Source: a virus (Duplodnaviria; Caudoviricetes). Taken from it: a DNA stretch of 64,000 bases. Below the pieces are notes generated by a model. It was not told the DNA's origin, ran no database searches, and saw nothing but the letters and a program-made list of their open reading frames with translations. Both the position numbers and the translations under genes were made by a program. Numbering within the stretch: the stretch's first letter is position 1; the number at the start of each line of letters is the position of its first letter. This document shows, piece after piece, positions 27,563 to 46,502 of the stretch. The DNA is taken from the IMG/VR virus record IMGVR_UViG_3300042888_002988, positions 1 through 64,000 of that record, one strand, 5' to 3'.

Positions 27563-28125
27563 GCGACGAACAGGATGAAGAACAGGATCCCGCCTACGTG
27601 GTATGGGAACCTGGCCAAATCGAAGTGTTCGAATGCGTTGAGGACGCCGAGCATGAGTTGATGGCCATGGGTTCCCGCGGACTGCGAGGGACGGTGCTTA
27701 CGTGCCTGGTGGATGCCGTGTCGACCCTCCTCGGCCGGCACGGCATCCATGCGGTAGGTGTGACCATGAACAATGATCACCGGCCAGAGGTCAGGGACTT
27801 CTGCGGTAAATATCCGACCACTTGGGAGCTGTCGACGTCGCAGGTCAGCTCGCGTTATCCGCGCGGGTCTATCTTCCTGCTGCTGCGTCGCCAGGAGCTG
27901 CCCGAGGACAGCGACAAGCTCAACTTCAAGGATGAGTTCAGGTTGCTCTATTACGACGGCGTCAACGCGGTGCAGGTATTCGGATGCCAGCTGGACGCGC
28001 TGGTAGCCACTGTGACGAGCAAGCTCACGATCACCGGTATCCTTCACGCTCAGGTGAAAGAGTTGGAGGCCAAGGCGGCCGAGCAGGCGGCGGAGATCGA
28101 GAGGCTGAAGGGAGGTGGGTCGTGA
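27559..28125 (+). CDS. hypothetical protein
   Basis: GGAGG upstream; GTGA overlap. Confidence 0.65.
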   Translation: MSDEQDEEQDPAYVVWEPGQIEVFECVEDAEHELMAMGSRGLRGTVLTCLVDAVSTLLGRHGIHAVGVTMNNDHRPEVRDFCGKYPTTWELSTSQVSSRYPRGSIFLLLRRQELPEDSDKLNFKDEFRLLYYDGVNAVQVFGCQLDALVATVTSKLTITGILHAQVKELEAKAAEQAAEIERLKGGGS

Positions 28126-28634
28126 GCCTGCACGAGCACAGTGATCGGTCGCGCAAGCAGGAAAAGCTGTCCGGGCGGTCGAGTTGCATCCGGGAAAGCA
28201 TCTTCCACATGCTGGTGGCGCGCGGTGCGCCCATGACGGACCGTGAGATCGCTGGCGTGCTGGGCGAGGACGACCTCAACAATGTGCGACCGGAGATCAC
28301 GCGGCTGCGTGACGCGGGGCTGGTGCGTGAAGTGGGCAACACGAAGTGCTCCATCACACGCCGGAAGGTGCGCCTGGTGCGGAACAAGGGGACGGAATAC
28401 GACCCGAACCGCATCATCGTGAAGGGGCGCAAGATCATGGAAGCGTCGCCGTGGAATCTGAGTGACGAGGTGCCGCCGCCGACCAATCACCCGGTGCTGG
28501 TGTGGCTGCCCTACAGCCCCAGGTCACAGCATGTGAATTCCTACTTCGGTGGGGATTACTGGGGCGTCACCAAGGTCACGCTGGTCATGAAGACGTATTG
28601 GCGGGAGCTTCCCCCGAACCCGACTGAATACTGA
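28122..28634 (+). CDS. winged-helix DNA-binding protein
   Basis: MTDREIAGVLG...VRPEITRLRDAGLVREVG. Confidence 0.65.
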   Translation: MSLHEHSDRSRKQEKLSGRSSCIRESIFHMLVARGAPMTDREIAGVLGEDDLNNVRPEITRLRDAGLVREVGNTKCSITRRKVRLVRNKGTEYDPNRIIVKGRKIMEASPWNLSDEVPPPTNHPVLVWLPYSPRSQHVNSYFGGDYWGVTKVTLVMKTYWRELPPNPTEY

Positions 28635-28635
28635 G

Positions 28636-28711
28636 TGCCGCCGGCGGGATTCGAACCCGCACTGTGCGGATTTTAAGTCCGCTGCCATACTGCCAGTTGG
28701 GCTACGGCGGC
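28636..28711 (-). tRNA. trnL: tRNA-Leu(TAA), short variable loop, no encoded CCA
   Basis: Acceptor GCCGCCG/CGGCGGC; anticodon loop CT-TAA-AA; T-arm GCGGG-TTCGAAT-CCCGC; A73. Confidence 0.9.
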
Positions 28712-28719
28712 GATGAGAG

Positions 28720-28794
28720 TGGTGCTGCACCCGGGACTCGAACCCGGAGTCTCCTGCTTCTGAGGCAGGCGCTATACCATTTCGCTAGTGCAGC
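28720..28794 (-). tRNA. trnL: tRNA-Leu(CAG), short variable loop
   Basis: Acceptor GCTGCAC/GTGCAGC; loop CT-CAG-AA; T-loop TTCGAGT; ACCA end. Confidence 0.9.
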
Positions 28795-28796
28795 AT

Positions 28797-28873
28797 TGGT
28801 GCCCAGGGGGAGACTCGAACTCCCATACACCAGATCCTTATTCTGGCGGCTTTACCAGCTTGCCTACCTGGGC
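28797..28873 (-). tRNA. trnL: tRNA-Leu(AAG), A34, short variable loop
   Basis: Acceptor GCCCAGG/CCTGGGC; stem CCAGA/TCTGG with loop AT-AAG-GA; T-loop TTCGAGT; ACCA end. Confidence 0.85.
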
Positions 28874-28927
28874 GTGGTGACTCCTACATGGGATCTTGGG
28901 GTCTAGGTCGACTTCCCCCTGCCGCGC

Positions 28928-29107
28928 TTACGACGCGGGTGTTTCCATGCGGTGGCCATTGGGTAATTGCGGTAGTCGCAATCGATCGGCTTCCTGCTCG
29001 TGCGTCCATCCCCACCCACACCAGTTGCACCACCAGCCATTCGAGCAATCGAAGATCTGGTTGGGGTGCGGCGACGCGCAGTTGGGACATGTAGCGGGAG
29101 TGGTCAT
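28928..29107 (-). CDS. 59-aa zinc-ribbon protein inside the tRNA array
   Basis: Translated by hand: MTTPATCPNCASPHPNQIFDCSNGWWCNWCGWGWTHEQEADRLRLPQLPNGHRMETPAS. Confidence 0.6.
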   Translation of the reverse strand: MTTPATCPNCASPHPNQIFDCSNGWWCNWCGWGWTHEQEADRLRLPQLPNGHRMETPAS

Positions 29108-29113
29108 CGAGAG

Positions 29114-29203
29114 TGGTGTGTCAGGAGGGAGTCGAACCCTCGATGTATCTTACGTTCTGGGTCTACAATCCAGCGCCCCGCAACCGACAGGAGCCTCTGA
29201 CAC
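29114..29203 (-). tRNA. trnY: tRNA-Tyr(GTA)
   Basis: Acceptor GTGTCAG/CTGACAC; loop TT-GTA-GA; long variable arm; ACCA end. Confidence 0.9.
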
Positions 29204-29210
29204 ATGAGAA

Positions 29211-29300
29211 TGGCGGAAGGCGGAGGGATCGAACCCCATGCGCTCGTCACGACACCCACGGTTTTCAAGACCGCTTTGCCCCCGTCGGGCGGCGCCTTCC
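29211..29300 (-). tRNA. trnS: tRNA-Ser(TGA) with 8/4 acceptor/T-stem
   Basis: 8-bp acceptor GGAAGGCG/CGCCTTCC; 4-bp T-stem GGGG/CCTC; loop CT-TGA-AA; long variable arm; G73-CCA. Confidence 0.9.
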
Positions 29301-29310
29301 TTTGGAAAAT

Positions 29311-29385
29311 TGGCTCTCGAGGCACGGATCGAACGTGCGACCTGGGCATTAACAGTGCCTCGCTCTTCCACTGAGCTGCTCGAGA
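29311..29385 (-). tRNA. trnN: tRNA-Asn(GTT)
   Basis: Acceptor TCTCGAG/CTCGAGA; D-arm GCTC/GAGC; loop CT-GTT-AA; G73-CCA. Confidence 0.93.
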
Positions 29386-29403
29386 TTTGGAAGAATCCGG
29401 AAG

Positions 29404-29478
29404 TGGAGACACGACCCGGAATCGAACCGGGGTGACCTGGGTTGCAAGCAGGTGCCTGGGCCGCTCGGCCATCGTGTC
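29404..29478 (-). tRNA. trnC: tRNA-Cys(GCA)
   Basis: Acceptor GACACGA/TCGTGTC; loop TT-GCA-AC; U73-CCA. Confidence 0.93.
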
Positions 29479-29520
29479 GTTGTTGGAAAATTGTCATGGA
29501 GGAAATCTGGAAGAATCTGG

Positions 29521-29556
29521 AAAACAAAAAGCCCGCCTGGAGCTAACCGGCGGGCT
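29521..29556 (-). terminator. attenuator terminator upstream of the tRNA array
   Basis: On the - strand: AGCCCGCC-GGTTAGCTCCA-GGCGGGCT, with the U-tract TTTTTGTTTT at its 3' end, in the sense direction of the tRNAs and before the first tRNA. Confidence 0.85.
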
Positions 29557-29594
29557 GGAGTTTTGAGGAGTGATTCGAAGGAGGAATGGTCAAA

Positions 29595-29672
29595 TCAGGT
29601 CAATAGAACTCGGCCCGCGTAGCTGCAATAGCTGAGCAGGAAATTCGAGGACAATGACCAGAGGCACTTCAT
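29595..29672 (-). CDS. leader peptide of putative tRNA-operon attenuator (MKCLWSLSSNFLLSYCSYAGRVLLT)
   Basis: 25-codon ORF; 14 of codons 3-18 are Cys/Leu/Ser/Asn/Tyr; codons 19-22 can pair with the 5' arm of the terminator. Confidence 0.8.
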   Translation of the reverse strand: MKCLWSLSSNFLLSYCSYAGRVLLT

Positions 29673-29680
29673 TCGGGCGC

Positions 29681-29709
29681 AATCAATACCCTACCACGGA
29701 CAACGTCAA
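29681..29709 (-). promoter_or_regulatory. candidate promoter for the leader/tRNA operon
   Basis: TTGACG at 29709-29704, 37 nt before the leader ATG. The -10 is ambiguous (TTGATT at 17-nt spacing, or extended TG-G-TAGGGT). Confidence 0.45.
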
Positions 29710-29724
29710 CAATAAATTTCTATA

Positions 29725-30006
29725 ATGAGCGATTCATTCAATCAGCAGCAATACATCCGGCTTAAAACTCGGCTGACCACCAAGCGGAACAAACTGTCCC
29801 AAGCTATACCCGCCCGATCGGACGCGAGTAGCATGACGGACAAGATGAAAGACGAGGCCATAGCAGCCGCGCGCGCAGTCATCGTGGAGGTGGACTATGC
29901 CAATACGCTGTTCGAATCCACCGGCTATCCCGATGCGTGGATGGACTGGGAGCGGGCGAAGGAAGATGCGGAGATGCACATCCGCAGGCTGGGAGGTAGA
30001 CTGTGA
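29725..30006 (+). CDS. hypothetical protein
   Basis: 93-aa ORF divergent from the tRNA operon. Confidence 0.6.
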   Translation: MSDSFNQQQYIRLKTRLTTKRNKLSQAIPARSDASSMTDKMKDEAIAAARAVIVEVDYANTLFESTGYPDAWMDWERAKEDAEMHIRRLGGRL

Positions 30007-44323: not shown

Positions 44324-44688
44324 GCAAGCCGTGGAGATGGCGTGAGCGCAAACTGCGCCACCACAGCCACCTGTCGCTCATGGCCGGCAGCCGGGAGATA
44401 CTGCGCCTGGAGAACAGCGACATGTCGGAGGTCACACCTACGATGCGCATGCTCACCCGGGTGCCGGTGCTGGCTCACCTACTGAAGCAGATGCCCGCGG
44501 TGAACGCCCGCCGGCCGCTTGATGACGACGCGCCTGATGGCTACCTTGAAAGTGACCGGGACTGGATACGCAACAACGAAGCCGCGATCATTTGGTTACT
44601 GGAGCATGCGGAGGTTCTTCGCTCGAGTTTGACGCCTTGCTCCCGACAGCCAGCCAAGCTTCCAGCGATTCAAAACCCAAGTGTGTGA
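44320..44688 (+). CDS. hypothetical protein
   Basis: Coupled ORF; its 3' end overlaps the convergent gene by about 100 nt. Confidence 0.5.
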   Translation: MSKPWRWRERKLRHHSHLSLMAGSREILRLENSDMSEVTPTMRMLTRVPVLAHLLKQMPAVNARRPLDDDAPDGYLESDRDWIRNNEAAIIWLLEHAEVLRSSLTPCSRQPAKLPAIQNPSV

Positions 44689-46453
44689 TTACGGCCGGCA
44701 GCTGATCGAACGGTTGTGCAAGTTCCTGCTTCAGCCGTTGCAGATGCTGGTCCGGCCAGAATTGCAAGGCGTGCCCCACGCCGTCCATGTGCGGACCGTG
44801 CCCCACGGGTCTGTCCGGGACCTCCAGCGGCGCTTTCGGCGCGCTCAGCCACGGCGTTAGCGCCTCCTCCAATAGGCCCGGCTCTTGCAGCAGGCGCTCG
44901 TAAACTAGGATCGGCATGCGCGGATACATCATCGCTTGGCGCAGGTGGTCGATCCAGTAACGCAAGGGGTCGTAGAAGTATCCGGTGAGGTCGCCGAGAT
45001 CGTCACGCCGCCGACCTCTAGGGTCATTCTCATCGTGGGCCATCCATCCGAACAGCTGGCCGCCTTTTCCGTCCAGAAACTGCTCAAAGGTCAGGTCACT
45101 CAGTAGTCGCTGGATGCGCTTGTTGAATGAGCCTTTGGGCGGCTCTGCCGTCCACCAGCGCCAAGTCTTGTATATGCAGTCAATGGGATTGCGCACAGTG
45201 TGGATCCACTCGATTCCGTCTGGGAGCGCGCGGGCGTCGAGCGCGTGGCTCTTGGCCCACGCGCAGCCCCAACCCTGCTCGATCATGGCGCCGGTAAAAT
45301 GAGTGCCGGAGCGTCGATGACTGTGTATACCGACGCGTGTCAAGGCGGTCTTGATACCGCACGTCTCCACCTTCACGCCCGCTGCGCACGAAAACTTCAG
45401 TGCAGTTGCTTTACGCTCTTCGTTAGGATGCCAAGTCACCCGTGGCAGCTCGTTCAGCGCCGCGTCCATCAATGACGCTACGCGAGTCGGTGCGCAATGT
45501 TGCCTCACCACCGGTGCGTGCACCTGCGCTATTATGCGGTGCTGTTCGTAGTTGGCGTAGCATGCGCGAAGCTTTTCAGCGCCCGCTGCGACGTCAGGGA
45601 CATCCCACATGCGAGAGTTGTTGAATGGGTCGGCGTAGCGCGGAAGAACGAACTCGCGTTGCTCAGCGATAGAAATCAGCGAGCTGCTGTGCAGGTAGTC
45701 CAAGGGACCTCCGGTAGCGGAAGCGATAACCGGCATGCCATAAGCTGCCGCTTCAGCCAGATGCAACTCGAACGCCCCGGCTAGGTGGGCAGACAACAAT
45801 ACGTGCCCCATATCGTAGATGTCCTGCATGTTGGGAACATCCCGAGCGATCACTGTGATGCGCGGATCTTCGTTGATCATTTGCGCAAACACCGGGGGCA
45901 GTCGCGAGTCTGGCACGCGTGTTTTGACTATCCATCGCACGTCCGGAAACTCCTCAGCTGGGAAAGCTTTTTGAAACATCTGGTAAGCGAACTCCTGACC
46001 CTTCCGAATCTCGACCAGATGTCCACAGGTCAACACGGTAAACGGCGTGTCGGCTGTGCAGCTGTGCAATGATTGAAATGGCCACAGCACGTGAGGTATG
46101 ATTTTAACTGGCTGTTTTACGCCCGAGGCGGTCAGTGCATCGGCAGATGCTCGACTGGGTGTCCAGAGTTGAGCAAGCTGATCCACGCGCTCATCGATGG
46201 ACCTACGCGTTCGGTCTCCTTCGATCACGCAGTAACCGACGGTTGGGATACCCTGCCGCGTGGCCGCTGGCCAACGCATGTGCGGCGGCCCGCCCACAAA
46301 GGCGATCGCAGCGCGATGTTGAACGATAGCGTTGACGCCTGTCTGCAGACTGTTGACGACTTCATGGCGGGCGAGCAACGCCTGCGCATTGTCGCGGCCA
46401 GCGCGCCCGATACCTGACTTTTCATGCGGGGACGACAAATAGAGGACTTTCAT
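44588..46453 (-). CDS. GT-B (GT4-like) glycosyltransferase fused to a PAPS-dependent sulfotransferase domain
   Basis: GAFELHLAEAAAYGMPVIASATGG (GT4-like); SHRRSGTHF (5'-PSB loop), AKSH, VRNPIDC (3'-PB) and LVYERL. Confidence 0.85.
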   Translation of the reverse strand: MKVLYLSSPHEKSGIGRAGRDNAQALLARHEVVNSLQTGVNAIVQHRAAIAFVGGPPHMRWPAATRQGIPTVGYCVIEGDRTRRSIDERVDQLAQLWTPSRASADALTASGVKQPVKIIPHVLWPFQSLHSCTADTPFTVLTCGHLVEIRKGQEFAYQMFQKAFPAEEFPDVRWIVKTRVPDSRLPPVFAQMINEDPRITVIARDVPNMQDIYDMGHVLLSAHLAGAFELHLAEAAAYGMPVIASATGGPLDYLHSSSLISIAEQREFVLPRYADPFNNSRMWDVPDVAAGAEKLRACYANYEQHRIIAQVHAPVVRQHCAPTRVASLMDAALNELPRVTWHPNEERKATALKFSCAAGVKVETCGIKTALTRVGIHSHRRSGTHFTGAMIEQGWGCAWAKSHALDARALPDGIEWIHTVRNPIDCIYKTWRWWTAEPPKGSFNKRIQRLLSDLTFEQFLDGKGGQLFGWMAHDENDPRGRRRDDLGDLTGYFYDPLRYWIDHLRQAMMYPRMPILVYERLLQEPGLLEEALTPWLSAPKAPLEVPDRPVGHGPHMDGVGHALQFWPDQHLQRLKQELAQPFDQLPAVITHLGFESLEAWLAVGSKASNSSEEPPHAPVTK

Positions 46454-46461
46454 GCGCCGCT

Positions 46462-46490
46462 TATTTAAGCGGTAAAATTTAGGCAGTCAA
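46462..46490 (-). promoter_or_regulatory. sigma70-type promoter, probably leaderless mRNA
   Basis: TTGACT-N17-TAAATA-N8-ATG on the - strand. Confidence 0.55.
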
Positions 46491-46502
46491 CCAGTTCCAC
46501 CA

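Follow-up and report, generated by a model that had tools for sequence, protein, structure and literature searches.

Is a tRNA operon of a phage simply left on, or can its transcription be made to depend on the tRNAs that it encodes? Phage transfer RNA (tRNA) genes are usually discussed as constitutive codon-usage helpers or as spares against tRNA-cutting defences, and, to our knowledge, the control of their expression is largely unknown. The question is raised by a tRNA island in a window of 64,000 nucleotides (nt), that is, the whole stretch of DNA that was analysed, which covers the initial 64 kb of one 200,158-base pair (bp) virus record (IMG/VR IMGVR_UViG_3300042888_002988) of an uncultured lake phage. 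The order on the − strand of this island is promoter, 25-codon open reading frame (ORF), strong intrinsic terminator, and only then the tRNAs. The sequence-only reading of the window had proposed that a ribosome-mediated attenuator controls the tRNA operon. This proposal was supported by the relatives of the locus, in which the reading frame is kept, the content of the leader matches that of the array, and a segment of the ORF (region 2) changes together with the terminator. We consider it quite likely that the phage tRNA operon is gated by this element, acting as a ribosome-mediated (leader-peptide) transcription attenuator. Six leader variants were compared, namely that of the window, which is shared by L020, and those of L014, of L017 and L022, of L019, of L018, and of L021; the five beyond the window come from public assemblies. 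The core features of the island in the window are the following.

29595–29672 (−): leader ORF, 25 codons plus TGA; the sole frame open in the six lineages, single-base differences between lineages being synonymous.
29619–29666 (−): 16 putative regulatory codons (codons 3–18), solely for Cys, Leu, Trp, Ser, Asn, Phe, and Tyr; unique in the genome, with equivalents of 11–17 codons in the relatives.
29521–29556 (−): intrinsic terminator with an 8–10-bp G+C-rich stem, the conserved loop UUAGCU, and the U-tract UUUUGUUUU; compensatory stem changes in L014, L017, L018, and L021.
28635–29478 (−): array of seven tRNAs in the order Cys-GCA, Asn-GUU, Ser-UGA, Tyr-GUA, a 59-codon ORF, Leu-AAG, Leu-CAG, Leu-UAA.

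The leader ORF is present as described in the sequence-only reading, running from ATG at 29672 to TGA at 29595 (−) and encoding 25 amino acids. The count of codons was also borne out: Cys, Asn, Ser, Tyr, and Leu account for 14 of codons 3–18, the remaining two specify Trp and Phe, four different Leu codons, four different Ser codons, and both Tyr codons are used, and 10 of the 16 codons begin with U. Among 277,484 stop-free windows of 16 codons in all six frames of the 200-kb genome, codons 3–18 are the only one composed entirely of Cys, Asn, Ser, Tyr, Leu, Phe, and Trp. Only four loci genome-wide have at least 14 of 16 codons for the five-amino-acid set, and all but the leader are low-complexity repeats. 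Under the base composition of the segment itself, the probability of at least 14 of 16 codons for the five-amino-acid set is 5e-5, and that of 16 of 16 for the seven-amino-acid set is 6e-6.

The comparison of the six variants indicates which aspects of the leader are maintained. The leader peptide is MKCLWSLSSNFLLSYCSYAGRVLLT in the window and in L020, the same with K2N in L014, MHCLWSLSSFNLLSYCSSAGASSIDQI in L019, MHFLWSLSSYCFLSLFGCGPRVL in L018, and MRPVRYSWSNLCLSLFGSGRSVDQPFAPSA in L021, while the ORF of L017 and L022 has a GTG start followed by KHLWSLSSFNNLLSYCSSAGASSIAIG. The leader frame is the only one that is open in all six variants. All single-base differences within the run are synonymous (CTC/CTT, TTG/CTG, CTG/CTC/CTT, TGC/TGT, GGC/GGT), a two-base change in one Leu codon, from CTC to TTG, also keeps Leu, the one additional codon of L017 is in frame, and replacements are mostly within the set of seven amino acids. 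The lengths of the run in the six leaders are 16, 17, 16, 16, 14, and 11 codons, with His, Lys, and Gly as outliers at the edges. The motif LWSLSS is kept in five of the six lineages; the leader of L021 is barely alignable by nucleotide, yet all seven amino acids are present in a different order (YSWSNLCLSLF). Thus, the relatives that keep the array also keep the reading frame of the leader, with changes of the coding type, and a start codon and a single open frame appear to be maintained in all six variants, as leader-peptide attenuators require. The end of the ORF behaves differently. In L017 and L019, a 1-nt insertion after the Gly codon alters the peptide tail, but the nucleotides CGAGTTC are kept, so that constraint acts on the RNA in the tail and on the codons in the run. 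Such a combination would be predicted for an attenuator leader and not for a functional small protein. The leader ORF is presumably translated.

The tRNAs for Cys, Asn, Ser, Tyr, and three times Leu were found downstream of the terminator, at 29478–28635 (−), as had been claimed. The array of the window is the shorter version of a larger set. L014 has ten tRNAs, for Cys, Asn, Ser-UGA, Phe, Trp, Ser-GCU, Tyr, and three for Leu (two of which in this count were missed by ARAGORN and were read by eye and with Rfam), and the full ten-tRNA array thus adds Phe-GAA, Trp-CCA, and Ser-GCU to the set of the window. Ten-species arrays are also present in L017 (where the Ser-UGA gene was read by eye), L019, and L021, with Leu-GAG in place of Leu-AAG in the latter two. 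The amino acids of the full array in L014, L017, L019, and L021 are Cys, Asn, Ser, Phe, Trp, Tyr, and Leu, exactly those of the leader run, and L018 has neither a tRNA-Asn nor an Asn codon in its leader. The suggestion that leader codon content co-varies with array content was therefore upheld by the match of seven amino acids in the full arrays and by the joint absence of tRNA-Asn and Asn codons in L018, but not by the window itself, where the two do not match. L020, whose flanks are about 98% identical to those of the window and whose leader is identical, retains Phe, Trp-like, and Ser-GCU tRNAs, and lacks both the 59-codon ORF and the gene at 28115–28631. Because of this relative, the array of the window is best viewed as a recent deletion or recombination variant.

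The second line of evidence comes from the alternative pairings of the leader RNA, for which four further features are needed.

29598–29659 (−): hairpin 1:2, a predicted anti-antiterminator or pause hairpin in the minimum free energy (MFE) folds, with the helices GGUCA/UGACC, CUCG/CGAG, and CCUGC/GCGGG and an inner AGCU/AGCU.
29607–29618 (−): region 2, GCGGGCCGAGUU (codons 19–22), which would be the 3' strand of hairpin 1:2 and the 5' strand of the antiterminator; a near-copy of the 3' arm of the terminator.
29571–29597 (−): linker hairpin UGAUUUGA...UCGAAUCA in the folds, with the stop codon in its 5' arm and CCUCCU in its loop.
29549–29562 (−): region 3, the 3' strand of the antiterminator in the pairing computation, overlapping the 5' arm of the terminator.

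The intrinsic terminator that had been placed before the tRNAs was recovered as the hairpin AGCCCGCC/GGCGGGCU at 29556–29530, followed by UUUUGUUUU to 29521, and the postulated antiterminator of 11 bp proved to be a pairing of 6 plus 5 bp between GCGGGCCGAGUU (29618–29607) and AACUCCAGCCCGC (29562–29550). The free energy (ΔG) of this duplex is −17.7 kcal/mol, which was equalled by 4 of 1,000 dinucleotide shuffles of the ORF. The strongest duplex between the ORF and the 5' arm of the terminator lies, in each of the six lineages, at nt 50–68 of the ORF, directly after the run, and the best duplexes range from −15.9 to −24.0 kcal/mol (matched by 0–17 of 1,000 shuffles). Region 2 duplicates the 3' arm of the terminator over 6–8 bases in a fixed register and follows its changes: G-C-C is replaced by A-U-U in L017 and by C-G-G in L021, in L018 the counterpart of a U-A pair of the terminator is U-G with region 2, and the outer helix GAGUU/AACUC becomes GAGUG/CACUC in L018. 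The pairing tables were scripted in this fixed register because MAFFT alignments misplace the terminator arms. In these pairings, compensatory changes in regions 2, 3, and 4 link the predicted antiterminator to the terminator. A nested hairpin 1:2 can be formed in all six lineages with differing sequences (UUGAGCUA/UAGCUCAG in L017, AGCC/GGCU in L018 and L021, GGUCCA/UGGACC in L021). The linker hairpin differs in the wastewater variant X26, where the listed changes reconstruct to UGAUUAC...GUAAUCA and are compensatory.

The leader of the window folds better than its shuffles (z −3.6), and its MFE structure consists of a long hairpin within the ORF and the terminator. Ribosome stalls were modelled by forcing a footprint of 27 nt to be unpaired during folding. 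With the ribosome absent, placed from codon 15 onwards, or at the stop codon, the predicted probability of the terminator was 0.9–1.0, apart from 0.64 in ribosome-free L017. Stalls within the run gave lowest values of 0.23 in the window, 0.24 in L014, 0.00 in L017, 0.39 in L018, and 0.31 in L021. Folding with the footprint masked thus gave the expected drop in five of the six lineages, but not in L019. Equilibrium folding of truncated RNAs did not separate the states "no ribosome" and "stalled ribosome", and this distinction rests on kinetics. Here, as in classical attenuators, folding at equilibrium underrates a decision that depends on kinetics. Stalling of the ribosome would decide on read-through in this model.

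What remains to be asked is where transcription and translation of the leader start. The region upstream of the ORF has the following features.

29710–29734 (−): AT-rich, UP-element-like stretch upstream of the −35 (76% A+T; 68–84% at the same place in six lineages).
29704–29709 (−): −35-like hexamer TTGACG; TTGAC[G/T/C] is kept in six lineages.
29687–29703 (−): 17-nt spacer between −35 and −10, constant in length and not conserved in sequence.
29681–29686 (−): −10-like hexamer TTGATT (TT[T/G]NNT in the relatives), assigned from its conserved position and spacing.
29673–29680 (−): G+C-rich, discriminator-like stretch of 8 nt from the −10 to the start codon (7–10 nt with 80–88% G+C in all lineages).

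The candidate promoter TTGACG of the sequence-only reading is thus found at 29709–29704 (−). The start codon, ATG or, in L017, GTG, lies 7–10 nt past the −10 in the six lineages, and the complete layout, from the AT-rich stretch through TTGAC, 17 nt, TT[T/G]NNT, and the G+C-rich stretch to the start codon, occurs only once in the window. It resembles what we take to be the layout of stable-RNA promoters with a G+C-rich discriminator. The 8 nt between the −10 and the start codon allow no ribosome-binding site, so that a leaderless mRNA is probable, in which the start codon would coincide with or adjoin the presumed transcription start. Shine-Dalgarno sequences are absent from most genes of the phage, which points to a host with Shine-Dalgarno-independent or leaderless initiation. 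Most of the well-defined genes have an A/C-rich, G-poor sequence before the ATG, for example upstream of 2062, 4696, 20450, 26444, and 50169. The other counter-oriented gene, a glycosyltransferase-sulfotransferase gene at 44588–46453, is preceded by TTGACT, 16 nt, TTAAAT, 9 nt, and ATG (upstream region 46454–46500, −), and is a probable second leaderless transcription unit with a host-type promoter.

A separate promoter that drives the array from between the terminator and tRNA-Cys would have spoken against attenuation. None was predicted there in the window, and in L019 and L021 the distance from the T-tract to tRNA-Cys is just about 22–25 nt, which leaves no room for one. Nor does the terminator have an upstream − strand gene to serve, as had been noted before: the upstream neighbour, a gene for 93 amino acids at 29725–30006, diverges on the + strand. 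In the window and in every relative, the orientation of the tRNA island is opposite to that of its flanking genes. Since the terminator sits between the sole upstream promoter and the tRNAs in this counter-oriented island, the tRNAs would be made only by read-through.

The mechanism that we propose runs as follows. A host-type RNA polymerase, which is presumably the enzyme that transcribes the island, would start at the strong promoter of the stable-RNA kind and produce a transcript with its 5' end at or a few bases from the AUG, and a 70S ribosome would load on the leaderless mRNA as it emerges. The ribosome would then read the run of Cys, Leu, Trp, Ser, Asn, Phe, and Tyr codons, the amino acids of the ancestral ten-tRNA array. 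If decoding is fast, the ribosome would reach codons 17–25 or the stop codon and cover region 2, or, alternatively, hairpin 1:2 would form again; the terminator would fold and transcription would stop before tRNA-Cys. If any of these tRNAs is scarce, the ribosome would lag within the run and keep hairpin 1:2 open, so that region 2 could pair with the 5' arm of the terminator and the polymerase would continue into the tRNA genes. The result would be a negative feedback on the supply of exactly these tRNAs.

Several observations weigh against this mechanism or limit its reach. The evidence consists of sequence comparison and predicted folding for an uncultured phage, and the six lineages share ancestry, so that they testify to the maintenance of one invention and not to six independent ones. 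The match of leader and array has gaps: the leader of the window retains Trp, Phe, and AGC codons without matching tRNAs, that of L018 has CTC and CTT without a Leu-GAG or Leu-AAG tRNA, and His, Lys, and Gly codons stand at the edges of the runs. Folding is not uniformly favourable either. The equilibrium stall-sensitive range is narrow in the sequence of the window (codons 8–10), and in L019 the probability of the terminator never falls below 0.90 under any stall; the model therefore relies on co-transcriptional kinetics. In a simple model, stalls at codons 3–7 should still permit hairpin 1:2 and thus lead to termination. Position 2 of the −10-like hexamers is not the canonical A, and for this reason the promoter, the start site, and leaderless translation all stay predictions. 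In addition, the phage encodes pieces of a multisubunit RNA polymerase, and if this enzyme transcribes the island, host-like termination and coupling cannot be assumed.

The same observations have to be accounted for by other explanations. The promoter, ORF, and terminator could make up a separate small gene, for the 25-amino-acid peptide or for a terminated small RNA (sRNA), with the tRNAs arising from constitutive leakage without any sensing. We regard this as improbable. The unit does have its own promoter and a strong terminator, and the conservation of LWSLSS in five of six lineages would fit a functional peptide, but the tail of the peptide is frameshifted between lineages with its nucleotides kept, and L021 retains the amino-acid repertoire and not the sequence. 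For an sRNA one could cite the C/U-rich stretch with CCUCCU after the stop codon and a sub-threshold Rfam match to the alphaproteobacterial sRNA mmgR; however, the C/U-rich linker is the most variable part, with insertions and deletions, and the match is absent in L014. Neither version explains why the amino acids of leader and array are equal or why region 2 and the terminator co-vary. RNAs derived from attenuators can also work in trans, as does rnTrpL (PMC6614838), and the terminated leader RNA might have such a role; this could exist alongside attenuation. Three families were considered for the leader RNA and set aside. The match to mmgR/suhB (alpha-r8, RF00519) scored 25.3 bits against a gathering threshold of 41 and covered 29516–29592, mostly the terminator; the Rfam Trp_leader reached 16.1 bits, below threshold; and the T-box covariance model gave no match even at E ≤ 5.

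Less probable still is a structured but untranslated leader RNA, acting in processing, in protein binding, or as a factor-dependent terminator switch, with the ORF as a by-product of RNA constraints. The 77 nt of the ORF that are unchanged in the window, L014, and X26, save one base in L014, exceed what coding constraint alone would require, and the folds are significantly stable (z −3.6, −4.8, −2.9). In the distant lineages, on the other hand, single-base changes are synonymous, a codon is inserted in frame, and the conserved start codon keeps its distance from the −10; just one frame is open across all six variants. A reordered repertoire of seven amino acids as in L021 would not be selected by RNA structure alone, and no Rfam riboswitch or T-box matches the leader. 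An ordinary insulator or bidirectional terminator at the divergent junction, with an ORF and a composition that arose by chance, is highly improbable. The + strand hairpin is flanked by an A-tract before and GGAGTTTT after it and could dampen + strand read-through across the antisense tRNA island, but its T-run is short and 4 nt off the stem. No other site in the genome has this codon composition, which would be improbable even given the base composition of the segment, and the comparative data contradict chance: the ORF, its composition, and the alternative pairings are kept in six lineages in which the neighbouring protein is only about 60% identical, and the divergence of the leaders argues against recent copies of a single sequence.

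How does leader-peptide attenuation of a tRNA operon compare with known systems? The predicted features comprise all structural elements of leader-peptide attenuators, that is, the ORF, the regulatory codons, the terminator, the antiterminator, and the 1:2 hairpin. Known attenuators, however, belong to amino-acid biosynthesis or aminoacyl-tRNA synthetase genes, whereas the genes that would be regulated here are seven to ten tRNAs. The trpL, hisL, leuL, and pheL leaders are the leader-peptide transcription attenuators of enterobacterial amino-acid operons. Attenuation of this type has been modelled (PMC1183508). The phage leader shares with these the short ORF with regulatory codons, hairpin 1:2, the mutually exclusive 2:3 antiterminator and 3:4 terminator, and the position of the ribosome as the input. 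It differs from them in that tRNAs and not biosynthetic enzymes would be regulated, with feedback on tRNA abundance and not on amino-acid supply, in that seven amino acids would be sampled instead of one, in its probably leaderless mRNA without a Shine-Dalgarno sequence, and in being phage-borne. Multivalent attenuators are represented by the ilvGMEDA leader (Ile, Val, and Leu) and the thr leader (Thr and Ile). They resemble the phage leader in their mixed codons, with shortage of any listed amino acid raising read-through, but they serve two or three amino acids of one pathway, whereas the seven sampled here would be set by the downstream tRNA genes. The pheM leader attenuates the pheST operon for phenylalanyl-tRNA synthetase and thus, like the phage leader, a component of the translation apparatus and not of biosynthesis; in contrast to the phage leader, it responds to a single amino acid and controls genes for a protein product instead of the tRNA itself.

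T-boxes are untranslated leader RNAs to which uncharged tRNA binds directly. They have in common with the phage element a 5' leader, a response to tRNA status, and a choice between terminator and antiterminator; in the phage leader no T-box match is found and the evidence points to translation. In mycobacteria, leaderless polycysteine short ORFs have been described in which ribosomes stalled in the codon tract remodel the downstream RNA and control the operon (bioRxiv 10.1101/834739). These are likewise leaderless sensory short ORFs, but the output of the phage element would be an intrinsic terminator before RNA genes. Full-text literature searches turned up no account of an attenuator upstream of tRNA genes. 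What appears to be new, relative to known leader-peptide attenuators, are the tRNA targets, the sampling of seven amino acids, and the probable leaderless start. If the reading as an attenuator is true, the logic of trp and his attenuation would be applied to RNA genes, such that the product of the operon, tRNA, is the molecule that is sensed, which would give direct homeostatic feedback. It would also provide a sequence rule for regulated tRNA operons (a promoter, a mini-ORF that spells the amino acids of the array, and a terminator), a natural multi-tRNA sensor usable in defined translation systems, a means of asking which tRNAs become limiting in infection, and a case of leaderless mRNA as an attenuator leader beyond the actinobacterial examples.

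The natural cause of the tRNA depletion that would throw the switch can be approached by conjecture. A tentative extension, which we regard as possible but doubtful, is that the leader is a multi-input sensor of tRNA loss, such that depletion of any of the ten tRNA species, through host anticodon nucleases or phage shut-off of host tRNA synthesis, would stall ribosomes in the leader and turn on the replacement set, and that the array is an on-demand counter-defence module and not a constitutive aid to codon usage; the link to anticodon nucleases and the idea of counter-defence are speculation. Equally speculative is the alternative that the leader senses i6A37 hypomodification.

The remaining features of the island concern the array itself.

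29479–29520 (−): spacer from the terminator to tRNA-Cys; its last 19 nt (29497–29479), ATGACAATTTTCCAACAAC, are near-invariant in all lineages.

This 19-nt sequence is the most conserved part of the whole leader region in all lineages. Related CCAATTTTCCAA spacers recur between the tRNAs (e.g., 29302–29310, −). The core of the motif is confined to the array and occurs nowhere else in the genome, and a role of the ATGACAATTTTCCAACAAC and CCAATTTTCCAA motifs as a general phage promoter was rejected because they are found only there; ATGACAATTTTCCAACAAC has no resemblance to a promoter and may be an RNase processing signal. The 59-codon ORF (28928–29107, −), between tRNA-Tyr and the Leu tRNAs, has a zinc-ribbon-like CxxC...CxxC pattern; searches of Pfam and of the protein collection gave no match and no homologue, respectively, and the ORF is kept in L014 and absent from L017 and L020. 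The tRNA island is also a hot spot of rearrangement (28115–29300 of the window compared with L020, L015, and L004–L013), and the spaces between tRNAs in L022 hold insertions of about 420 nt and 600 nt, which are absent from L017 despite its having the same leader.

The homologues of the 93-amino-acid neighbour fall into three clusters: phages without a tRNA island at the site (59% identity, L004–L013), a copy with unrelated upstream sequence (96%, L015), and a copy with the island and the leader (62%, L014). L017/L022, L018, L019, L020, and L021 were recovered with spurious ORFs that span the array as protein queries. The GenBank phage collection gave DNA matches at the tRNA level only and no protein matches for the two flanking genes. 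In IMG/VR, no relative was found via the 59-amino-acid ORF, the terminator, a 21-mer of the leader, or the 19-nt spacer, and a methylase search returned only distant loci without tRNAs. The single match of the leader 21-mer in the JGI metagenomes lies within an aldehyde dehydrogenase gene and was dismissed as chance. The sequences from the lake runs X3, X4, and X11 do not differ from the window and thus give no microdiversity. The datasets listed as holding this phage include no RNA set. The wastewater run X26, labelled "RNA-Seq cDNA", is probably DNA; because its contig of 218 nt includes the promoter, it was used for no inference on transcripts.

The genome as a whole has a G+C content of 60%, and identical DNA is present in several lake-water metagenomes. 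The long ORFs of the window are nearly all on the + strand. Jumbo-phage genes are present, among them an NAD-dependent ligase and a fragment that resembles a multisubunit RNA polymerase beta subunit, and the nearest GenBank phage relatives share just about 30–40% protein identity. A homologue of the phiKZ nuclear-shell protein was searched for in this phage and not found, which is weak evidence against a phage nucleus that would uncouple transcription from translation. Outside the window, at 157068–157958 of the 200-kb genome, the phage encodes a transfer-messenger RNA (5' GGGGCG..., a 3' T-arm plus ACCA, and a frame ending in ...ALAAA), followed by a tRNA-Met-CAT and by a tRNA-like gene whose anticodon loop is oversized and to which ARAGORN assigns a 4-base anticodon; this block has no preceding leader ORF or terminator. 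In L012 (6282–7271), a C5 DNA methylase gene beside the 93-amino-acid gene is split by a 329-codon gene on the opposite strand, an interruption that may be a mobile insertion.

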